From sequence record JN882298: a stretch of DNA of 42,608 nt, one strand, 5' to 3'. Below, one piece after another: positions 11,223-40,899 of this stretch. Positions within the stretch are counted from its first letter, which is position 1, and each line of letters begins with the position of its first letter. Both the position numbers and the translations under genes were made by a program. Below the pieces are notes generated by a model that worked only from the letters and a program-made list of their open reading frames with translations, ran no database searches and was not told the DNA's origin. The DNA is from Escherichia phage phiKT.

Positions 11223-11942
11223 ATGTTAGTAATGCTCTCTGGCGCGATTGGCGCTGGCAAAGATACCTTCGGTGAGTTCCTGTACGACTCATTTGACAAG
11301 TTCGGCTACAACGTGGAAGTGGTGAAGTTTGCCGACCCCATTCGTGAAGCTGCATTTAAGCTCGGATTCAATCCAGATGACCGGGCAACCAAGGAAGTAC
11401 CTGCAATACGCCATTATAAACTCTCAGAACTTGATGAGGCCATTTTTACTACTCATACCTGCCTGACACCTTACGAGCGCCGAATGGTCGCTGTACGAGT
11501 TCACCAGAGATTAATTAACATCCGTAAGGAAAAGCACGATGGCATTTATAAACCTGTCGTCAGTACGCGGGAGTTTATGCAGGTGGTTGGCGGCACTGTC
11601 CGAGATGCAGATGTGGATTACTATATCAAACACATGTTATCCAATGTACCCGTTGGGCGAATTAACATCTGCACTGACTCTCGGTTCCTTAACGAGCAAA
11701 AAATCGGGGATTATTCAATCTACGTTGAGCGTCCAAACAACCCGCTGGCGGTTAATACTCTCGACGCCTCGGAAGCAGCACAAGCATCGCTCCGAGGGGC
11801 GGCGAAGAAAGTAATCCTGAACAACAGCACTCTGGATAATCTGGCAGAAATGGCAGACTATGTGGCTACAACACTAATTTCAAAAGGGTATTGTGATGAT
11901 GCAGTTAAAGAGTCAAGCGGAACTGGAATCCTTATCGAGTGA
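11223..11942 (+). CDS. P-loop kinase (dNMP/nucleotide kinase-like)
   Basis: Walker A (GAIGAGKDT) at the N-terminus; 239 aa; 3' end overlaps the RNAP start. Confidence 0.55.
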   Translation: MLVMLSGAIGAGKDTFGEFLYDSFDKFGYNVEVVKFADPIREAAFKLGFNPDDRATKEVPAIRHYKLSELDEAIFTTHTCLTPYERRMVAVRVHQRLINIRKEKHDGIYKPVVSTREFMQVVGGTVRDADVDYYIKHMLSNVPVGRINICTDSRFLNEQKIGDYSIYVERPNNPLAVNTLDASEAAQASLRGAAKKVILNNSTLDNLAEMADYVATTLISKGYCDDAVKESSGTGILIE

Positions 11943-14367
11943 ACGCGGCCTTGCCAAGCTGATGGCCGAGTGTGAGCAGGCTGAATCAGCGGGGCGTGCA
12001 TCCGGCGCGTTTTATGCCAAGCAGTTGTTAGAGCGTTTTGTTAACCGTATGGCCGAACGTATTGACCACGAGATGGCGAATCCGGGTGCTGGCCGCGCGA
12101 AAGCGCATAAGAAACTGGTCGCTGTGTTTGACTCAAAAGTCACTGCGTTTATTTCTGTATCAACCACATTGAATATGCTGATGGTCAACGAGCAGACACC
12201 GGGCACCAGCCTTAGTCGCGCCCTCGGCAATGCAATGTACAACGAACTGTTCTGCACCACGTTCGACGATGCCAACCCGGACCTGTTCCACACCATCTGC
12301 AAGGACTTGGATAAGCGCCAGAGCAAATCCAGCCGCCACCGCATGACTGTGCTGAAGAATCAGGCAGCGAAGAAGGGTATCGCGTGGGAGAACTGGACCG
12401 TCACCGAAATCCTTCAGGTTGGTGAGTGGTGTCTGGATAATCTGGTGTCAGTTGGCCTGTGCGAAACGCATACCGAGGTGTCTCGCGGTAAGGCGAAGAT
12501 GTACGTGGAACTGTCCGACGAGGCGCTGGGAATGATTGAGGATACCAAACGTCTGGTGTCCTTCTTCCGGCCCCAGCGCCTCCCGTTCGTAGAGAAGCCT
12601 CTGGACTGGACCGGGATTGTTGGTGGTGGCTACCATACTGCTCGTATGCAGAGTACGATGCCTCGTTGCATCAAAGCCAGCCCGACCCAGATGGATGTAC
12701 TCATAAAGCATCGTGACGACTACAAGGGTACGGTGGTGGCGTGCATTAACACTCTGCAATCGGTAGAGTGGCGTATCAACAAGCGTATTCTGGAAGTGCA
12801 GCAGCAGATGTTCCGTGGCTTTGAGCCGAAGAACAAGCCGGATGCGCTGGAGTGTCATAGCAAGGACGTTGAGGATTGGACAGAGGCAGATAAATCTCTA
12901 CACAGCCACTGGAAGAAGGAAATGGCTCGCTGGTACACAGAGCAGCGTGCAGAGCGTTATGCCGCTTCACGACATGCCTACACGTTGTCAGTGGCACGAG
13001 AGTTCGCTGACTACCCGCGTATCTGGTTCATGTACTTCGCTGACTGGCGGGGCCGTTACTACCCGGCCACCACAGGCATCTCGCCGCAGGGGACCGACAT
13101 CTCTAAATCCATGCTGGAGTTCGCCAATGGCAAGCCCATCTCTGACCCAATCGCAGAACAGTTCTTCTTCCTCCTTGGTTCAACTAAATTCGGATTCGAC
13201 AAAGGCTCTATATCCGAACGAGTTCAGTGGGTTCACGAGAATCACGAACTTATCATGGCGTGTGCCGACGAACCGCTACTTCATACTGATTTCTGGTACA
13301 GAGAGGCAGATAAGAAGACCCGTTACCAATTTCTGGCATGGTGTTTTGAATATGCTGAATACAAACGGTTCCCGGCTGGATTTGTATCACGACTTCCGGT
13401 ATCTCTTGATGGCACATGTAACGGCCTACAACACTATTCGGCGATGTTACGAGATTCGGTTGGTGCTAAAGCTACCAACTTGTTACCTGCTAACCGACCA
13501 AACGATATTTACGCGCAAGTCGCAGGCGTTGTCACCAACCTTCTTGAAAGCATGTCACCTGCTGACTTCCCGGCACTGACACGCGAATCTAAGCCTCTCA
13601 GCATCTATGAGGTGGATTTTTTCAGGAGGGGGTGGTTACACCACGGCATTAGCCGTAGCCTCGTTAAACGGTGCGTTATGACGTTACCTTACGGGTCCAA
13701 GAAGTTCAGCATGGGTCGCTTCATTAAGGGCGATTACATGCTGGATATTCACCCGGAAGAGTTCGACACCGACGACTACACCGACGCGGCGAACTTCCTT
13801 GGCGATATAGTCTGGAAGGCTATCGGGATGGTGGTAGAGAAGGCGGTCGGCGGCATGAGCTACTTTCAAGGCACCAGCCGAGCAATTACCCGCAAGAAAG
13901 ACGTTGAGGTCATCCAGTGGCCGAGCATGACCGGACTTCCAATTGTTCAGGATTATTGGAAGACAGAGTACGTACAGTTCCGCTCAGTACGTGGTGGTGG
14001 TGCTCGACTGAAGTGTCTGGTCGAAACGGACAAGATTGACAAGCTGGGACATGCCAACGGAATCGCACCCAACATTGTTCACAGTCTGGATGCAGCGCAC
14101 TTAACGTTCGTTACGCTGGCCGCAGCAAAGGCTGGCATTGACTCCTTCGCAATGATTCACGACGACTACGGAACCCACGCAGCCGACACAGCACTCCTGT
14201 TCAAGCTCATCCGTGAAGAGTTCGTCAAGATGTACGAGCAAGACCCTTTCACAATGATTGCTGAAGCTCTTGAAGCACAAGCAATATCCAAGTATGTTCC
14301 TGCCAGACCAGAGTTCGGCGACCTCGACTTACAGCAGGTCAATCACTCCGAATACTTCTTCCTGTAG
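11896..14367 (+). CDS. Single-subunit DNA-directed RNA polymerase (T7-like)
   Basis: Motifs DGTCNGLQHYSAM and HDDYGTH match T7 RNAP active-site motifs A/C; ~820 aa; followed by a terminator and a phage-promoter-like motif. Confidence 0.9.
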   Translation: MMQLKSQAELESLSSERGLAKLMAECEQAESAGRASGAFYAKQLLERFVNRMAERIDHEMANPGAGRAKAHKKLVAVFDSKVTAFISVSTTLNMLMVNEQTPGTSLSRALGNAMYNELFCTTFDDANPDLFHTICKDLDKRQSKSSRHRMTVLKNQAAKKGIAWENWTVTEILQVGEWCLDNLVSVGLCETHTEVSRGKAKMYVELSDEALGMIEDTKRLVSFFRPQRLPFVEKPLDWTGIVGGGYHTARMQSTMPRCIKASPTQMDVLIKHRDDYKGTVVACINTLQSVEWRINKRILEVQQQMFRGFEPKNKPDALECHSKDVEDWTEADKSLHSHWKKEMARWYTEQRAERYAASRHAYTLSVAREFADYPRIWFMYFADWRGRYYPATTGISPQGTDISKSMLEFANGKPISDPIAEQFFFLLGSTKFGFDKGSISERVQWVHENHELIMACADEPLLHTDFWYREADKKTRYQFLAWCFEYAEYKRFPAGFVSRLPVSLDGTCNGLQHYSAMLRDSVGAKATNLLPANRPNDIYAQVAGVVTNLLESMSPADFPALTRESKPLSIYEVDFFRRGWLHHGISRSLVKRCVMTLPYGSKKFSMGRFIKGDYMLDIHPEEFDTDDYTDAANFLGDIVWKAIGMVVEKAVGGMSYFQGTSRAITRKKDVEVIQWPSMTGLPIVQDYWKTEYVQFRSVRGGGARLKCLVETDKIDKLGHANGIAPNIVHSLDAAHLTFVTLAAAKAGIDSFAMIHDDYGTHAADTALLFKLIREEFVKMYEQDPFTMIAEALEAQAISKYVPARPEFGDLDLQQVNHSEYFFL

Positions 14368-14401
14368 TACCTCGGCCAAGGATGGCTACCCTCCCCCCTA
14401 T

Positions 14402-14420
14402 TTCGTCACCTACAATAGCA
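14402..14420. repeat. Exact 19-nt sequence ttcgtcacctacaatagca, copy 1 (intergenic, after RNAP)
   Basis: Identical 19-mer at 19222..19240 inside the scaffolding gene. Confidence 0.7.
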
Positions 14421-14453
14421 CACAATACCCTCAAACTGTTCGTTTTGAACACT

Positions 14454-14493
14454 AGCCTTGGCCTCTTTGGTCAGGGCTATTTTTTCTGTTTTT
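14454..14493 (+). terminator. Rho-independent terminator downstream of the RNAP gene
   Basis: ~10-bp stem (agccttggcc/ggtcagggct, one G-U and one mismatch) followed by a T-run (attttttctgttttt). Confidence 0.55.
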
Positions 14494-14533
14494 GGGTATT
14501 CGTTAAATATGGCTTGAAGCCTTGATATATGGG

Positions 14534-14560
14534 GTTTCCGCACATTATTTTAATAAGGGG
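14534..14560 (+). promoter_or_regulatory. Phage RNAP promoter-like motif, copy 1
   Basis: gtttccgcacattattttaataagggg; near-identical copy at 38018..38044; ends in a TATA-AGGG(AG) element like T7-type promoters. Confidence 0.5.
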
Positions 14561-14576
14561 TCTGGAGGGTGTTAAA

Positions 14577-14924
14577 ATGTTCCTTAAATTTTTACTTTGG
14601 TTAATTTCTAAGTTAAGCGAAAGCCAACTTAGTAAGGTAAGAGATTATTACCTGATTAGTGGTCCATACCGTAGTGAATTAGAAAGACTACATTCCCGGA
14701 TTAGTGAGTTAGAGGGTGCTCTTTCCTCCTCAGAGTCTGTACCAGAACCTGTTACAGAAATATTCAGTAGAATGAACTATGAGGTGTACGAATACTTTGA
14801 GCGTACAGTAAGTAATACTTCTGTAGCTAGTTCTACTACTGATTTAGAAGCTGGGTTTAAATTAGGTGTCCAGCATGTTCTCGCCAAGTTGAGGAATGGG
14901 TATGTCACACCGCGAAGTCTCTGA
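14577..14924 (+). CDS. Hypothetical protein, AT-rich accessory gene (N-terminal hydrophobic segment)
   Basis: Track ORF 14529..14924; ATG at 14577 with GGAGGGTG RBS; by eye much lower GC and different codon choice (tta, agt, aga) than neighbours. Confidence 0.5.
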   Translation: MFLKFLLWLISKLSESQLSKVRDYYLISGPYRSELERLHSRISELEGALSSSESVPEPVTEIFSRMNYEVYEYFERTVSNTSVASSTTDLEAGFKLGVQHVLAKLRNGYVTPRSL

Positions 14925-18457: not shown

Positions 18458-19378
18458 ATGACCGTATCAACTCCGTCAACTCCGGTACAACAAGCAGCAG
18501 CCCCGGCGGCTGCTCCGGCACCACAAGCTCCGGCACAGAGCGGCATCCCGTATGTTCCGCCTGCCCCTGTAGCTCCGGCTGCTCCGGTGGAAGCACCGCA
18601 AGCAACGCTTGACCCGAATCAATTCGCTAACCCGTCTCAGGCAGGCACCCCCGCCGCCCCGGTACAGCAGCCAGCACCGCAGTCTCAACCGCAGGCTCCC
18701 GTAGAGCCGCCAGCACAGCAGACGCCATCGCAGGCAGAATTAACGCTGACAGAGAAACCGTTGTACAAGCACGAGCCTACTGGCAACGCTGCTTATGATA
18801 TGGCTATGAATGCCTTCGCAGCCAAGGGATTCTCCCCGGACCACCCTGCATTCGTCCCGGCATCAAAAGGCGACTTCTCCGCACTGGAGGCGTTCGTCAA
18901 GGAGCAGGGCATAGACCCACAATATCTGGCCTTGGCCCAACAGGCTTACGTCCAGATTTCTGAGCACCACAACGCCACTCATGGCGAGACTATCAAGAAA
19001 GCACTGGAAGTCGCTGGTGGTCAGGAACGCTGGAACAAGGTGCAGGAATGGGTTCAGAACGTAGCCAGCCCGGAAGAGATTACTTACTACAAACAGCAAC
19101 TGGAAGCTGGCGGTATCGCAACCCTGAAAGCGGTTGAATATCTGTCCGGCCTGTACGGCCAGCACGCAGAGAACGCTCCGGCACAGCCTAGCGAATCGCC
19201 TGCTACCCCGTTCAATACCAATTCGTCACCTACAATAGCAACTAACGGTGCCCCGATTTCCCCGCAAGAATTTCGGGCAGAACTGTCTCGTCTCATTGAC
19301 AAGGTAGGGTACTCCGGTCTGGAAACCTCACCGGAATACAAAGCGTTGCAACAACGTCGTCAGGCGTGGCGCGGGTAA
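18458..19378 (+). CDS. Capsid scaffolding protein
   Basis: Between portal and major capsid; Pro/Ala/Gln-rich N-terminal third. Confidence 0.65.
   Translation: MTVSTPSTPVQQAAAPAAAPAPQAPAQSGIPYVPPAPVAPAAPVEAPQATLDPNQFANPSQAGTPAAPVQQPAPQSQPQAPVEPPAQQTPSQAELTLTEKPLYKHEPTGNAAYDMAMNAFAAKGFSPDHPAFVPASKGDFSALEAFVKEQGIDPQYLALAQQAYVQISEHHNATHGETIKKALEVAGGQERWNKVQEWVQNVASPEEITYYKQQLEAGGIATLKAVEYLSGLYGQHAENAPAQPSESPATPFNTNSSPTIATNGAPISPQEFRAELSRLIDKVGYSGLETSPEYKALQQRRQAWRG
19222..19240. repeat. Exact 19-nt sequence ttcgtcacctacaatagca, copy 2 (inside scaffolding gene)
   Basis: Matches 14402..14420 exactly. Confidence 0.7.
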
Positions 19379-20411: not shown

Positions 20412-20418
20412 TACAACT

Positions 20419-20446
20419 AGCCCTCACTTCGGTGGGGGCTATTTTT
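20419..20446 (+). terminator. Rho-independent terminator after the major capsid gene (T-phi-like)
   Basis: 9-bp stem agccctcac/gtgggggct with ttcg tetraloop followed by attttt. Confidence 0.75.
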
Positions 20447-21089: not shown

Positions 21090-23720
21090 ATGGCGCGTGT
21101 TGAAGGTTCTTACGAATCAGTAGTTCGGGGCGTCTCTCAGCAGGTGCCACACCAACGTTTCTCCGGTCAGCACACTGACCAAAAAAACTTACTTAGTGAC
21201 CCGGTAGAGGGTCTGGTACGGCGTAGAGGTACTCGTCGCATATCAGAGCATCTTGTTACCCCGTCACTGACTGCCTCCGCTATTGCAGAGATTCAAAAAT
21301 ATCGTACACACAAGTGGAACCCCGGTTCCGCTGGCGAACCACTACAGGTTGCATATAAGGCCAAGCCCGGTGTTATAGGGGATGGCCGTCTGCTGTACAT
21401 CATCAATCAGGTTACTCGGAACCGGGTTAACACTGCTGGTATAGATGCCGAGACTGATACGGTGTATCAGAAAGCACTCGCTAATGGTCTGTCCGCCATA
21501 ACCTCTGTGGGTCGTTACCTGTTCATGGCGGTAAACAATCATGTGGGCAGCGTGGCTGCGTCTCAGGATTACTTAGCAACAACCAACCGCAATAAGGTTG
21601 TAGCATGGGTCCGTGGTGGGGCATATGCCCGTACATATACTGTGACCTTATTGCTGGATGCTGGTGGTCAGTTGAAGTTCAGCTATACCACAATGTCCTC
21701 GTCGTACCCGACAGTGATTAACACCGCTGCGGCTGGTAATACCACCGACACGGATTATCAGAATAAGCTGTCCAAGATAGTCGCCGATTACAACTCGGCC
21801 ACTACCAAGTGGATTTCGGACGCAGCCAAGGACATCGACGCGGAGAATATTGCCAACCGCTTATTGAACGGTCCAGCCACATCCGGTAATACTGGTACTG
21901 GTACTGGTCTTATTGCAGCCAACGCTGCTGCCACGGGAATCAATAAAGTAACCAACCTGACGTATGCGCTGGTTAGCTCCACGCTGTATATTCAGGGCGA
22001 CAACATTCGTGAGATAGTTGTTGACGATGGTGGCGACACGACACTGATTCGTGGCGTTGGTAACGAGGTAACTAGCGCAGACTTGGTATCCACCCGACAC
22101 TTCTATGACAAGATTGTGAAGGTGCGTGCTAAGAAGTCCGACGACTCTGACGCATACTACCTGAAGGCAGAATCAAAGAACGACTCCAATGACCCCGGTG
22201 TAACTGACCGTGGGGAAGTGGTCTGGAAAGAGTGTGCTGGATATACTCAGACGTTGACCAACCATTTCCTGTTCGGCTACTACCACACTGATGGGGTCGT
22301 GTATGTTTCAAGCTCTCTTTCTAAGCTGTCTACTACGCTTTCAATCACTACCCCGGTTCTCCAACCGAACCTTGCTGGGGATGATTTCACCAACCCACCG
22401 CCTAACTTCGGCACCAAGCAAATCACCTATTTGGGTATGTTCCAAGACCGTCTTGTCGTGGGTAGCGGGGCAGTTGCTTCGTTCTCGCGGCCCGGAGATT
22501 ACCTTAATTTCTTTAGACAATCGGTGCTCACGCTTACTGACACTGACCCAATCGACATGTTCGCACTCGGAGCGGAGGATGATGTTCTCCGACACTCGGC
22601 GCTGTTCGATAAGTCGTTATTCATCTTTGGCGACAAGCGACAATACGTAGTCAACGGGCGTACCGTCCTGACTCCTACCAACCAGAACATGACCGTGGTA
22701 TCGCAATTCCCGAACACTACCGGGGCGCAGCCACAGGGTTCCGGCAACTTCATCTTCTATACGAAGCCCGGTGACACGAGTTCTCCAGTTATTACTCTCA
22801 ACCAGATGCAGTACGGGCAGATTGCAGACTCCACGGAGTCCTACGACCTGTCTCAACAATTGACTGACTTCTGTGCTGGGGTATGTGCTGAAATCGTTCC
22901 TGTGACCTCTCCAGCGGCTGTGCTAGTTCGTCCAGAGACATCGCAGAACTTGTACGTGTTCCGATACACCGATGAGGTGGGTACTGGTCGTCGTATGCAG
23001 GCTGCGTGGGACCGCTGGGAGTTCGACCCGGCATTCGGGACAATCATCTCTATGGCGACCTACGGCGATGAGATTCTGGCTATGGTTATGCGTAGGGCCG
23101 AGGATGGTTCGACGTACCTGTGCGTTGAGCAGTTATCGTTACGACCTGCAAAAAGCAACGAACCATATTTCGACTCATATCAGGTGGCCACTGGTGTAGG
23201 TTCCGGGATTACCGTATCCTCTCCGTACCTGTTAGCAAGTCCGAACTTACTTAATCGCTGTTATGTTGCGGTTGTTGGTGGTAGCCATGCTTTGACCGGG
23301 ACCACGTATGAGGATCGTGCAGAACTGACAGCCTCTCAAATTGCCGATGGGACTTTGGCGGCAGGTATCCCGTTCGAATCTTCCTGCATCCCAACCAACC
23401 CTTATCAACGTGACCAGAATGGGAACGCTATTCTACAGGGTAGGCTGGTGCTGTCTCAGGTTCAAATATCCATGCAGGATACTGGGGCTATGGACGTATA
23501 CGTGGCTGACGCTAACCGTGAGTGGTTATCGAAACACTTCAACGGGTTCCGCCTGTCCCGTACCGCATCTATGGTTGGTAGTCAACCTGTCGTGGACACC
23601 TCTATAACAGCATTGATTGGCCGAGAGGTCCGTGAATGCCGTTATCGCATTCAATCCGTTAAATTCCTGCCCATGGTGGTAACAGCCATCTCGTGGCAGG
23701 GTCAATCATTTAGGAGATAA
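21090..23720 (+). CDS. Tail tubular protein B
   Basis: 876 aa; position and size as T7 gp12. Confidence 0.75.
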   Translation: MARVEGSYESVVRGVSQQVPHQRFSGQHTDQKNLLSDPVEGLVRRRGTRRISEHLVTPSLTASAIAEIQKYRTHKWNPGSAGEPLQVAYKAKPGVIGDGRLLYIINQVTRNRVNTAGIDAETDTVYQKALANGLSAITSVGRYLFMAVNNHVGSVAASQDYLATTNRNKVVAWVRGGAYARTYTVTLLLDAGGQLKFSYTTMSSSYPTVINTAAAGNTTDTDYQNKLSKIVADYNSATTKWISDAAKDIDAENIANRLLNGPATSGNTGTGTGLIAANAAATGINKVTNLTYALVSSTLYIQGDNIREIVVDDGGDTTLIRGVGNEVTSADLVSTRHFYDKIVKVRAKKSDDSDAYYLKAESKNDSNDPGVTDRGEVVWKECAGYTQTLTNHFLFGYYHTDGVVYVSSSLSKLSTTLSITTPVLQPNLAGDDFTNPPPNFGTKQITYLGMFQDRLVVGSGAVASFSRPGDYLNFFRQSVLTLTDTDPIDMFALGAEDDVLRHSALFDKSLFIFGDKRQYVVNGRTVLTPTNQNMTVVSQFPNTTGAQPQGSGNFIFYTKPGDTSSPVITLNQMQYGQIADSTESYDLSQQLTDFCAGVCAEIVPVTSPAAVLVRPETSQNLYVFRYTDEVGTGRRMQAAWDRWEFDPAFGTIISMATYGDEILAMVMRRAEDGSTYLCVEQLSLRPAKSNEPYFDSYQVATGVGSGITVSSPYLLASPNLLNRCYVAVVGGSHALTGTTYEDRAELTASQIADGTLAAGIPFESSCIPTNPYQRDQNGNAILQGRLVLSQVQISMQDTGAMDVYVADANREWLSKHFNGFRLSRTASMVGSQPVVDTSITALIGREVRECRYRIQSVKFLPMVVTAISWQGQSFRR

Positions 23721-36093: not shown

Positions 36094-36329
36094 TGACTAT
36101 TGCTGCACAACTCCCAGACCCGAAGCTCGACGTTAAGGGCGACCGACTGCGTTTCCTGTTGGCCGCTTGTATCAGCGAGTGTAATATCCAAGCAGACAAC
36201 GGTGCGTATGATAAAGGCACCAGCTTCAAAGCCCTGCTTACTGCCGCTGCTGCACTCGTGAAGGTAGCTCCGGTAGAACCTGAAGACCCGGAAGACCCTG
36301 AAGACCCTGAAGACCCTGAAAACCCGTAA
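36093..36329 (+). CDS. Small hypothetical protein with C-terminal PEDPEDPEDPEDPENP repeat
   Basis: TAATG overlap with the terminase stop; C-terminus encoded by five tandem 9-bp units. Confidence 0.4.
   Translation: MTIAAQLPDPKLDVKGDRLRFLLAACISECNIQADNGAYDKGTSFKALLTAAAALVKVAPVEPEDPEDPEDPEDPENP
36283..36327. repeat. 5 x 9-bp tandem repeat (gaagaccc[g/t])
   Basis: Tandem units read directly in the sequence; encodes the (PED)n tail of the 36093..36329 ORF. Confidence 0.85.
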
Positions 36330-37810: not shown

Positions 37811-37854
37811 TAAAATTTGATATAATTTTGTGAGGGGGCAGTCCAACACAAATG
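37811..37854. repeat. Direct repeat (a)gggcagtcc flanking an AT-rich palindrome
   Basis: agggcagtcc at ~37811..37820 and gggcagtcc at ~37846..37854 flank taaaatttgatataatttt. Confidence 0.5.
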
Positions 37855-37886
37855 AGGTCGCGTTTCCCCCGTAGGCCCGGCCTTCT

Positions 37887-37958
37887 GGATGGCTGAATGG
37901 CTGGATGGATGGATGGCTGGACGGCTAGACGTTTAGACGGCTAAATGGCCAAATGACC
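37887..37958. repeat. Tandem array of nine imperfect 8-bp units (consensus ggatggct)
   Basis: ggatggct gaatggct ggatggat ggatggct ggacggct agacgttt agacggct aaatggcc aaatgacc read in strict 8-nt register. Confidence 0.8.
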
Positions 37959-38017
37959 GTAAAAAAGGGCCGTGTGCACTGATAGGGTCAATCGGGCTGT
38001 AGGTCGCGCCAACCGGA

Positions 38018-38044
38018 GTTTCCGCACATTACTTTATAAGGGAG
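38018..38044 (+). promoter_or_regulatory. Phage RNAP promoter-like motif, copy 2
   Basis: gtttccgcacattactttataagggag; matches 14534..14560 except for one substitution and one indel. Confidence 0.5.
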
Positions 38045-38134
38045 CTTGTAAGGTGTCTGGCGGCGATCCGTCTGACGACGGGAGAAGGGAAGAGACGTGG
38101 GGTATCTATCTTTTTGTGATTAGTGTTAGTTGTG

Positions 38135-40251: not shown

Positions 40252-40500
40252 ATGCGCAAACTTAGTGAAATTGTACATCATACCCACGTATTCTATAACA
40301 GCAAGGGTTATCTGTGGATAACCCTGAAGGAAGTGCGACCTGACGGGCGTCGTCGTGTGGTAGTACGTAAAATGAACAGCAAATACTTCAGTAATTGGTC
40401 ATTGGATACAGTACGCATTAATAACGAGACTTTTCAGATTGACTCACAGATTGACCTACAACCAACGGCAAGCCATTCCGCACCATATTTCTCCAACTGA
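40252..40500 (+). CDS. Early hypothetical protein (basic)
   Basis: GGGAGGA RBS; ATG one nt after the upstream stop; 82 aa. Confidence 0.5.
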   Translation: MRKLSEIVHHTHVFYNSKGYLWITLKEVRPDGRRRVVVRKMNSKYFSNWSLDTVRINNETFQIDSQIDLQPTASHSAPYFSN

Positions 40501-40515
40501 ATCCGGGCCTATGCC
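40497..40515. repeat. 19-nt motif ctgaatccgggcctatgcc, copy 1 (followed by a hairpin)
   Basis: Identical 19-mer recurs at 40881..40899; both copies lie at or just after a stop codon. Confidence 0.7.
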
Positions 40516-40622: not shown

Positions 40623-40865
40623 ATGCAAACTATTATCACCAAATACCACGGCGCTACCAGCACACGCGGGGGCCGTATCGTTGCCAAATACTGGAACGGT
40701 AAAAAAACGGTATCATACGACCACAGCCTGAATGCAGACGCTAACCATAAGGCCGCAGCCGATGCACTCATCGCCGACCTGAAGGCGCGTACAGGCAGCG
40801 ACTGGTCCATCATTGCAGCTGGTTGCCTACCAGACCACACGGGGTACGCGTTTATCATCGAGTAA
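40623..40865 (+). CDS. Early hypothetical protein
   Basis: GAGGT RBS; 80 aa. Confidence 0.5.
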   Translation: MQTIITKYHGATSTRGGRIVAKYWNGKKTVSYDHSLNADANHKAAADALIADLKARTGSDWSIIAAGCLPDHTGYAFIIE

Positions 40866-40880
40866 GATTTACACAGTCAC

Positions 40881-40899
40881 CTGAATCCGGGCCTATGCC
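40881..40899. repeat. 19-nt motif ctgaatccgggcctatgcc, copy 2
   Basis: Exact match to 40497..40515. Confidence 0.7.

Follow-up and report, generated by a model that had tools for sequence, protein, structure and literature searches.

Repeated promoter-like motifs after the RNA polymerase gene and in the terminal repeat of Escherichia phage phiKT

We examined the DNA of Escherichia phage phiKT (sequence record JN882298; the whole stretch of 42,608 nucleotides is called the window here) and identified two repeated, promoter-like motifs. Motif A occurs behind the gene for the phage single-subunit RNA polymerase (RNAP) and again in the terminal repeat; it is kept in place and orientation in relatives, and its copies evolve in concert. 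We regard it as a functional rightward cis-element specific to the phiKT/PGT2 clade and, tentatively, as most likely a second class of promoter for the phage RNAP. Motif B, which was absent from the first-pass annotation of this DNA, has one copy 130 bases upstream of the first copy of A, and judged by its sequence it appears to fit a T7/phiKMV-type promoter better than A does. A third element, a signal like that of the T7 concatemer junction, is found at the edge of the terminal repeat. In the literature that we searched, we found no transcriptome or biochemistry of phiKT or PGT2 and no description of promoters in this genus (Ermolevavirus), and the PGT2 announcement mentions none.

For the greater part of its extent, the window matched Escherichia phage PGT2 (Ermolevavirus, Autographiviridae) at ~95% identity, and the PGT2 paper describes a matching pattern of phiKT/PGT2 similarity. 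The window is a circular permutation of a phiKT/PGT2-type genome, with all genes on the + strand. PGT2 has an exact 260-bp direct repeat at both ends; its nt 1 corresponds to position 37842 of the window, and its last nucleotide (42686) corresponds to position 38103. The ends of PGT2 were assigned by similarity to phiKT plus RFLP (PGT2 announcement), and the Logan contig L050, from a relative, has as its very last base the counterpart of the right edge of the repeat (...GGGGT).

In INPHARED and IMG/VR (the latter by an RNAP alignment search), we found no relative between PGT2 and ~41% RNAP identity. A large protein collection contained RNAPs at 78, 75, 75, 74, 58, and 56% identity, encoded on metagenome contigs (L044, L047, L048, L045, L046, and L049); records of these relatives include Logan SRR26065827_195622 and SRR19681057_8313 and NCBI JACCDR010390208.1. 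The genome ends of three relatives (L050, L052, and L053) were obtained from TerL-anchored loci, whereas the DNA-polymerase-anchored loci were on contigs that ended too early or had early regions too long to span both copies of motif A. Beyond the window and PGT2, a within-genome pair of motif A copies was available for one phage only (L045/L050). The features discussed below are as follows (window coordinates).

11893 to 14367, + strand: single-subunit RNAP gene, 824 aa, catalytic Asp motifs and C-terminal YFFL intact (PF14700 and PF00940 in homologues)
14401 to 14420, + strand: motif B copy 1 (B1), TTTCGTCACCTACAATA followed by GCA, 34 nt past the RNAP stop and upstream of the terminator; predicted +1 G at 14418
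14453 to 14485, + strand: intrinsic terminator between B1 and A1, an 11-bp stem and then TTTTTT; position kept in relatives
14511 to 14521, + strand: upstream block of A1, GGCTTGAAGCC, then 9 nt, then GGGG-TTT
14531 to 14560, + strand: motif A copy 1 (A1), GGGGTTTCCGCACATTATTTTAATAAGGGG, the first-pass element at 14534 to 14560 plus GGG; identical in PGT2
14564 to 14924, + strand: Shine-Dalgarno sequence GGAGGG (14564 to 14569) and first late ORF (ATG at 14577), the gene that A1 would drive
19221 to 19240, + strand: motif B copy 2 (B2), ATTCGTCACCTACAATA followed by GCA, within the scaffold gene, with the capsid ATG (19428) 190 nt further on; predicted +1 G at 19238
37842 to 38103, no strand: terminal-repeat equivalent, the PGT2 260-bp direct repeat collapsed to one copy in the permuted window
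37989 to 38005, + strand: upstream block of A2, CAATCGGGCTGTAGGTC (PGT2, CAATCGGGCTGTAAGCC), 9 nt ahead of GGAG-TTT
38015 to 38044, + strand: motif A copy 2 (A2), GGAGTTTCCGCACATTACTTTATAAGGGAG, within the terminal-repeat equivalent; counterparts in the genome ends of L050, L052, and L053
38104 to 38115, + strand: junction-like signal, ATCTATCTTTTT, directly past the repeat edge and 60 to 65 nt downstream of the predicted A2 start

Both copies of motif A named in the first-pass annotation are present on the + strand, GTTTCCGCACATTATTTTAATAAGGGG at 14534 to 14560 and GTTTCCGCACATTACTTTATAAGGGAG at 38018 to 38044. They differ by one T/C substitution and one 1-nt indel, both 3' of a common 14-mer (GTTTCCGCACATTA) whose exact matches in the window are at 14534 and 38018 only. 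The likeness is longer than first noted, covering 42 nt at 76% ungapped identity (14531 to 14572 versus 38015 to 38056), and the upstream blocks of A1 and A2 also match at a conserved spacing. The count of two in the window was borne out by mismatch and gapped scans, which gave no third copy; in the gapped scan with motif A, the partner site scored 43 and every other site 26 or less (null maximum, 20 to 28). We rejected TTCCGCACCATATTTCT at 40476 as a third copy, which is kept in PGT2 but scores in the null range. The sequence there (40476 to 40493; PGT2 3403), AAGCCA-TTCCGCACCATATTTCT, lies at the 3' end of an early ORF and has the octamer TTCCGCAC and AAGCC in common with motif A, at a score within the chance range.

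The second site had been placed at the genome terminus, next to the terminal repeats. It is at the genome end but lies inside the repeat, at positions 177 to 203. PGT2 has motif A three times (at 176, 19143, and 42602), and because site 2 is within the terminal-repeat equivalent, virion DNA should hold three copies. Whether counted in the window (two) or in PGT2 virion DNA (three), the copies all have + orientation and lie outside called genes. In an all-against-all self-comparison of the window, the A pair scored 17, against 15.1 ± 0.8 (maximum, 17) in 40 shuffled genomes; on its own, the pair is thus only marginally significant over chance. It is important to note that we take motif A to be real on the basis of its conservation and concerted change in relatives and not on the basis of the pair score.

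At the first site, the RNAP gene ends the DNA-metabolism block, as in phiKMV-like phages. A1 starts 164 nt past the RNAP stop, beyond B1 and the terminator, 46 nt past the T-run of the latter and 17 nt ahead of the ATG at 14577, and this place is kept in L044, L045, L048, and L046. The terminator is of the same type as the post-capsid terminator at 20418 to 20446, and genes of 114 to 117 aa orthologous to the first late ORF are called in L044, L045, and L048. The predicted starts fall somewhere within 14552 to 14557 at A1 and within 38036 to 38040 at A2.

Several other observations concern this region. The transcript that would run from B1 to the terminator (14418 to 14486) would be 69 nt long, with two hairpins (dG, −22.5 kcal/mol; z, −4.8) and without an Rfam match; its segment ATACCCTCAAnTGTTCnnnTTGAAC is kept in relatives, and a role as a short RNA or as part of a 3'-UTR is possible. 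No Rfam family was found anywhere in the window, and a tRNA scan of the window found none. In L049 (56% RNAP identity), the space from the RNAP gene to the first late gene is enlarged to 660 nt, and long inverted repeats and a tRNA-Asn (GTT) lie there (12645 to 12718). The PGT2 record is without ~500 bp of the RNAP gene (window 13788 to 14289 versus PGT2 18897 to 18899), including the specificity loop and the second catalytic Asp, which led to the annotation of a 656-aa "N4-like RNA polymerase"; the gap is probably an assembly error, as close relatives encode 823 to 824 aa.

A-like elements were found after the RNAP gene in L044, L045, L048, L046, L047, and L134 and in the genome-end region of PGT2, L050, L052, and L053 (in the three relatives, in the region homologous to the repeat). 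Motif A is retained at both places down to 56 to 58% RNAP identity while its flanks diverge; the window and PGT2, ~96% identical in the motif A region, are too close to reveal constraint. The order in relatives is RNAP stop, motif B, hairpin terminator, GGCTGnAAGCC, 9 nt, A-like element, Shine-Dalgarno sequence, and first late gene. L047 and L134 are exceptions, with the A-like element upstream of B and of the terminator, and A is therefore not always a promoter after a terminator. The upstream block with its 9-nt spacing (GGCTGnAAGCC-N9) is kept in 9 of 12 A modules; the versions in L046, L047, and L134 are without it and keep a promoter-sized core.

The copies of motif A have changed together. 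In the window both are TTTCCGCACATTAY, and in the L045/L050 phage both are TTWTGGCATGTTATC; identity is 19/21 within a genome versus 12 to 16/21 between genomes. The 9-nt spacer inside the module differs between copies, though the blocks on both sides of it are alike, and since the spacer was not homogenized, selection is favored over simple gene conversion. In 79 loci of more distant relatives (IMG/VR RNAP search, ≤41% identity) we found no A-like motif, and a motif A scan of IMG/VR returned PGT2 as the sole match. We dismissed 30 metagenome matches to motif A as chance matches without homology to the window.

The first-pass annotation read motif A as a T7-type promoter, pointing to its TATA-AGGG(AG) end. 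That likeness to the T7 initiation region holds (TTATA-AGGGAG versus CTATA-AGGAGAG in phiOL), and the element is real, co-oriented with the genes, and at promoter-like positions, but its spacing, its variable core, and the presence of motif B argue against a T7-type promoter in the strict sense. The two window copies differ by 1 nt in the distance from the GGGGTTT block to the +1 G candidate, which is 25 to 29 nt among relatives and becomes constant only with a register starting at an A/T inside the AT-rich run; such variability makes A unlike the rigid T7-type promoters. The core of A is CCGCAC, CAGTCA, TGGCAT, or CGGACAC under one specificity loop (VQFRSVRGGG[A/S]RLKC, alike in the RNAPs of the window, L044, L045, L047, and L048), so that A would not be readable through the same base contacts as B. 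Further, a conserved upstream block is not a feature of known single-subunit RNAP promoters.

Motif B (TTTCGTCACCTACAATAGCA) emerged from a repeat scan in which every 16-mer of the 300 nt after the RNAP stop was compared with its own genome, with ≤2 mismatches. The scan recovered the known promoters of T7, KP34, and LUZ19 as positive controls, and in the window it returned two families, motif A and motif B. B1 and B2 have a 19-nt exact match in common (score, 19; highest score among shuffles, 17). If +1 is taken to be G 14418, motif B has the T7 geometry from −17 to +1, with 9 of 18 consensus matches that include A−6, C−5, and ATA-G at −3 to +1, and the B motif of L044 holds an exact ACTATAG. 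The B core, TTCGTCACC (−15 to −8), is invariant in five lineages whose RNAP specificity loop is invariant too. The −7 to −3 block covaries between the copies (B1/B2 by genome, TACAA/TACAA, CACTA/CACTA, TAGAA/TAGTA, GTAAA/GAATA, and CTCAA/CCAAA), and among 120 permutations of the B1-B2 pairing none does as well as the true one; one of the B2 changes in this block is a synonymous codon change in the scaffold gene. A position weight matrix (PWM) made from B placed the LUZ19 promoters P008 and P001 among that genome's top four sites and the Cota motif first and fifth in Cota. With its T7-type geometry, invariant core, covarying copies, and likeness to mapped promoters, motif B is very likely a phage promoter, a candidate proposed here from sequence.

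We also considered A and B as one family linked by TTTCSKCAC. This holds in the window (9/17 in register) and fails in relatives, where A changes and B does not, and the string common to the two would be coincidence or old ancestry. A PWM from the Cota motif ranked B1 ~5th and A2 ~7th of 85,000 positions in the window, both under the shuffle maximum, and these ranks are suggestive only.

The placement of motif A had been likened to that of T7 promoters. Its positions, behind the RNAP gene and at the left end of the genome, are indeed those used in related phages, but it is B, and not A, that is the most T7-like. In T7, promoters phi1.1A and phi1.1B stand in tandem just after gene 1, like B1 and then A1, and phiOL lies at the left genome end, comparable to A2, which is at the genome end and points rightward. 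The arrangement of phiOR and phiOL with the concatemer-junction pause site also resembles that of A2 with ATCTATCTTTTT. T7 differs in having one consensus for all 17 of its promoters, versus two unrelated motifs in the phiKT-type phage. Further, phiOL and phiOR lie 245 bp to the right and 549 bp to the left of the 160-bp T7 repeat, whereas A2 is inside its repeat, 60 to 65 nt from the edge; the function that a compact A2 cassette would have is spread over ~700 bp in T7.

The promoters of KP34 (Drulisvirus), mapped in vitro and by 5'-RACE, include one at 22197, immediately past the RNAP gene, and one at 475, close to the left end. The KP34 RNAP works from promoters of two unrelated classes, both of them present where its gene ends, a weak one in the last ~50 nt and a strong one just past the stop. 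KP34 resembles the window in having the RNAP gene at the end of the DNA-metabolism block and few promoters. It differs in that its left-end promoter is 260 bp outside its 216-bp repeat and in that its promoters, TAATGTTACAGGAGTA and ACTTTGGACATCCGTCAAGT, are unrelated or loosely similar to A, at an RNAP identity of 27%. The only repeat of >20 nt in KP34 was inactive in vitro, a warning against equating the only long repeat with a promoter.

LUZ19 has four phage-specific promoters (GgtTATGTCACacACAnnGG) by ONT-cappable-seq, two of which follow the RNAP gene immediately, with another close to the left end. The string GTCACC(C)AC(A/T)ATAG is common to the LUZ19/phiKMV promoters and motif B; the likeness is to B and not to A, the left-end promoter of LUZ19 (P001) is antisense, and RNAP identity is again 27%. 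The suggestion that phage-RNAP transcription is driven from very few sites agrees with the promoter counts of four in LUZ19 and in KP34 and two in Syn5, few promoters being normal in phiKMV-like phages; motif A is not the sole candidate, however, as B exists.

The nearest RNAP relatives among the listed phages (40 to 43% identity) are Xylella phage Cota, Caulobacter phage Cd1, Burkholderia phage JG068, and Ralstonia phage RSB1, and the repeat scan found strong post-RNAP motifs in all four. The predicted copies of these motifs follow the RNAP gene, precede capsid or tail-fiber genes, and are also found toward the left end or in the early region, the left end of Cota and Cd1 being assumed to be the start of the record. 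The left-end copies are at 252 in JG068 (annotated in the record) and, as predictions of the repeat scan, at 312 in Cd1 and 387 in RSB1. The Cota motif, GAGTTTCGGCACCCTACATA, agrees with A over the 5' half of the latter and with B over almost its whole length (14/18 with B of L044). In these phages a single predicted motif serves all positions, whereas the phiKT clade splits the positions between A and B.

The signal past the repeat edge resembles the class II pause signal of the T7 concatemer junction in sequence and position. In T7 the heptamer ATCTGTT is a pause and termination signal that acts on single-subunit RNAPs, and its sole occurrence begins at nt 161, the first base after the 160-bp repeat (CCCT, then ATCTGTT). 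In the window and in PGT2 (261 to 272), T and then ATCTATCTTTTT follows the same rule, so that in both types of phage the terminal repeat is directly followed by ATCT(G/A)T. L052 (~11866) and L053 (~13756) carry CCCT followed by ATCTATCTTT(T/G)T in alignment with the junction signal, at contig positions whose repeat edges are not mapped, and ATCTATCTTT is found at the homologous place in four lineages. In JG068, ATCTGTA straddles the repeat edge, starting at the last repeat base; at the repeat edges of KP34 and LUZ19 we found nothing like the signal. The match to the T7 heptamer itself is partial, ATCTATC preceded by T in the window versus ATCTGTT preceded by A, C, or T (5/7). With T7 RNAP any base change abolishes the class II signal, and another polymerase may read another heptamer at 38104 to 38115. 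TATCT recurs further right of the repeat edge, and ATCTATCTTTTT could belong to a repeat array.

Several lines of evidence favor a promoter at motif A. It is the sole element common to the post-RNAP place and the genome end in the window, it is co-oriented with the genes, downstream of a terminator and 17 nt before the first late ATG, and KP34 provides the precedent of one RNAP with two unrelated promoter classes. In addition, the 5' half of A, GRGTTTCSGCAC, resembles the post-RNAP motif of Cota, GAGTTTCGGCAC, a similarity that is below the genome-wide null. RNA synthesis would then start at A, carried out by the phage polymerase. A1, just past the intrinsic terminator, would restart transcription 20 to 25 nt before the first late gene. 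A2 would fire rightward at the left genome end and at every concatemer junction; a polymerase from A2 would meet ATCTATCTTTTT after 60 to 65 nt, pause at the repeat edge, and proceed into the early region, an arrangement that would be of use in DNA maturation or replication in addition to expression. The canonical late promoters would be supplied by a motif distinct from A, motif B (14401 and 19221), and the roles of motif A would resemble those of phi1.1 and phiOL/phiOR.

Another possibility, which we consider rather unlikely, is that B is the only promoter of the phage RNAP and that A is a site acting at the DNA level, such as a replication origin or a site for helicase/primase loading or for recognition by terminase or some other DNA-binding protein of the phage. 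In T7, the places that correspond to those of A, after the RNAP gene and at the genome end, are where the primary and secondary origins and the packaging signals lie. These T7 elements themselves need phage promoters, so that the two readings overlap. A bipartite module of ~55 to 65 nt, larger than a T7-type promoter, with the near-palindromic GGCTTGAAGCC, a fixed 9-nt spacer, and an AT-rich segment, would suit a DNA-level site, but L046, L047, and L134 keep the promoter-sized core without the upstream block. The core of A does not track the specificity loop, B alone occupies the canonical post-RNAP and pre-capsid positions, and the only long repeat of KP34 is no promoter, all of which agree with a DNA-level site. 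A terminase site duplicated at 40% of the genome, however, would be hazardous, and the strict co-orientation and the 17 nt to the late ATG would be left unexplained.

It is improbable, in our estimate, that A is a promoter of the host RNA polymerase, read by sigma70 alone or with a phage activator on GGCTGnAAGCC, with A2 as the first early promoter to enter the cell. Site 1 does overlap TTGATA-N18-TATTTT (9/12 match), TTGATA being the first six nucleotides of the 9-nt spacer of A1 (14522 to 14527), and in orthologous post-RNAP copies the corresponding columns read TTGGTA or TTGCCA, N18, and TATATT or TATCTT. Nine of the 12 modules have a TAYNTT hexamer, initiation 6 to 8 nt past it would fall on GGG, and A2 is at the extreme left end, upstream of all early genes. 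The terminal-repeat copies, on the other hand, have GCGCCA, ACGCCA, or TACTGC in the −35 columns, and A2 itself (GCGCCA-N18-TACTTT, ~6/12) is at the random level, so that sigma70 hexamers are not found in all copies. The best-conserved part, GGGGTTT..GCA, would sit in the spacer, unread by sigma70; a simple scan found no excess of sigma70-like sites in either region; and host-driven late genes would contradict the Autographiviridae scheme. By eye, no sigma54, sigma32, or other alternative sigma consensus fitted at motif A. Finally, that the copies are a functionless neutral duplication or are alike by gene conversion is very improbable: the best of 40 shuffles equals the pair in score and window and PGT2 are too close for constraint to show, but A is kept at both places to 56 to 58% RNAP identity amid diverged flanks, with blocks homogenized on both sides of a spacer that is not.

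The reading of motif A as a second promoter class for the phage RNAP can be made more specific, in a form that we hold to be doubtful. The RNAP of this clade would read both the rigid, T7-like B and, outside the reach of its specificity loop, the long A with its AT-rich spacer (often with GGCTGnAAGCC), and A2 with ATCTATCTTTTT would form a "promoter plus pause" cassette marking the genome end for concatemer processing.

The window contains other repeats and signals. Inside the terminal repeat, 37886 to 37957 hold about nine tandem 8-bp units (TGGATGGC, TGAATGGC, TAGACGGC, and similar), and a 75-bp stretch (37881 to 37959) is ~80% identical to jumbo coliphages such as PBECO4 and slurp01. A perfect extended −10 (TGATATAAT, 37818 to 37826) lies 16 nt left of the terminal-repeat start, within a block, AAAATTTGAT...GAGGGGGCAG followed by TCCAAC, that is partly conserved in L050, L052, and L053 and may be the region recognized or cut on the left. 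Behind the large terminase gene, a gap of 265 nt has five or six tandem 9-bp units (GAAGACCCT, 36263 to 36325). A 19-nt exact direct repeat, CTGAATCCGGGCCTATGCC, occurs at the ends of early ORFs (40497 to 40515 and 40881 to 40899), the first copy overlapping the stop of the ORF that ends at 40500 and the second just past the ORF that ends at 40865, and it ties for the strongest dispersed repeat in the genome.

Few promoters are the documented state of phiKMV-like phages, and that part of the picture is not new. For the identification of phage promoters, "the one long repeat" is an unreliable guide; the more canonical candidate in this genome is a repeat of 19 nt, half concealed within a coding region. 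Should the one 824-aa polymerase read both A and B, this would be the second single-subunit RNAP with two promoter classes, after KP34, and would offer new orthogonal polymerase-promoter pairs for in vitro transcription. With A2 and the junction-like signal in a compact 100-bp cassette, the long-standing idea from T7 that DNA maturation is directed by a polymerase transcribing through the concatemer junction and pausing there would become testable.
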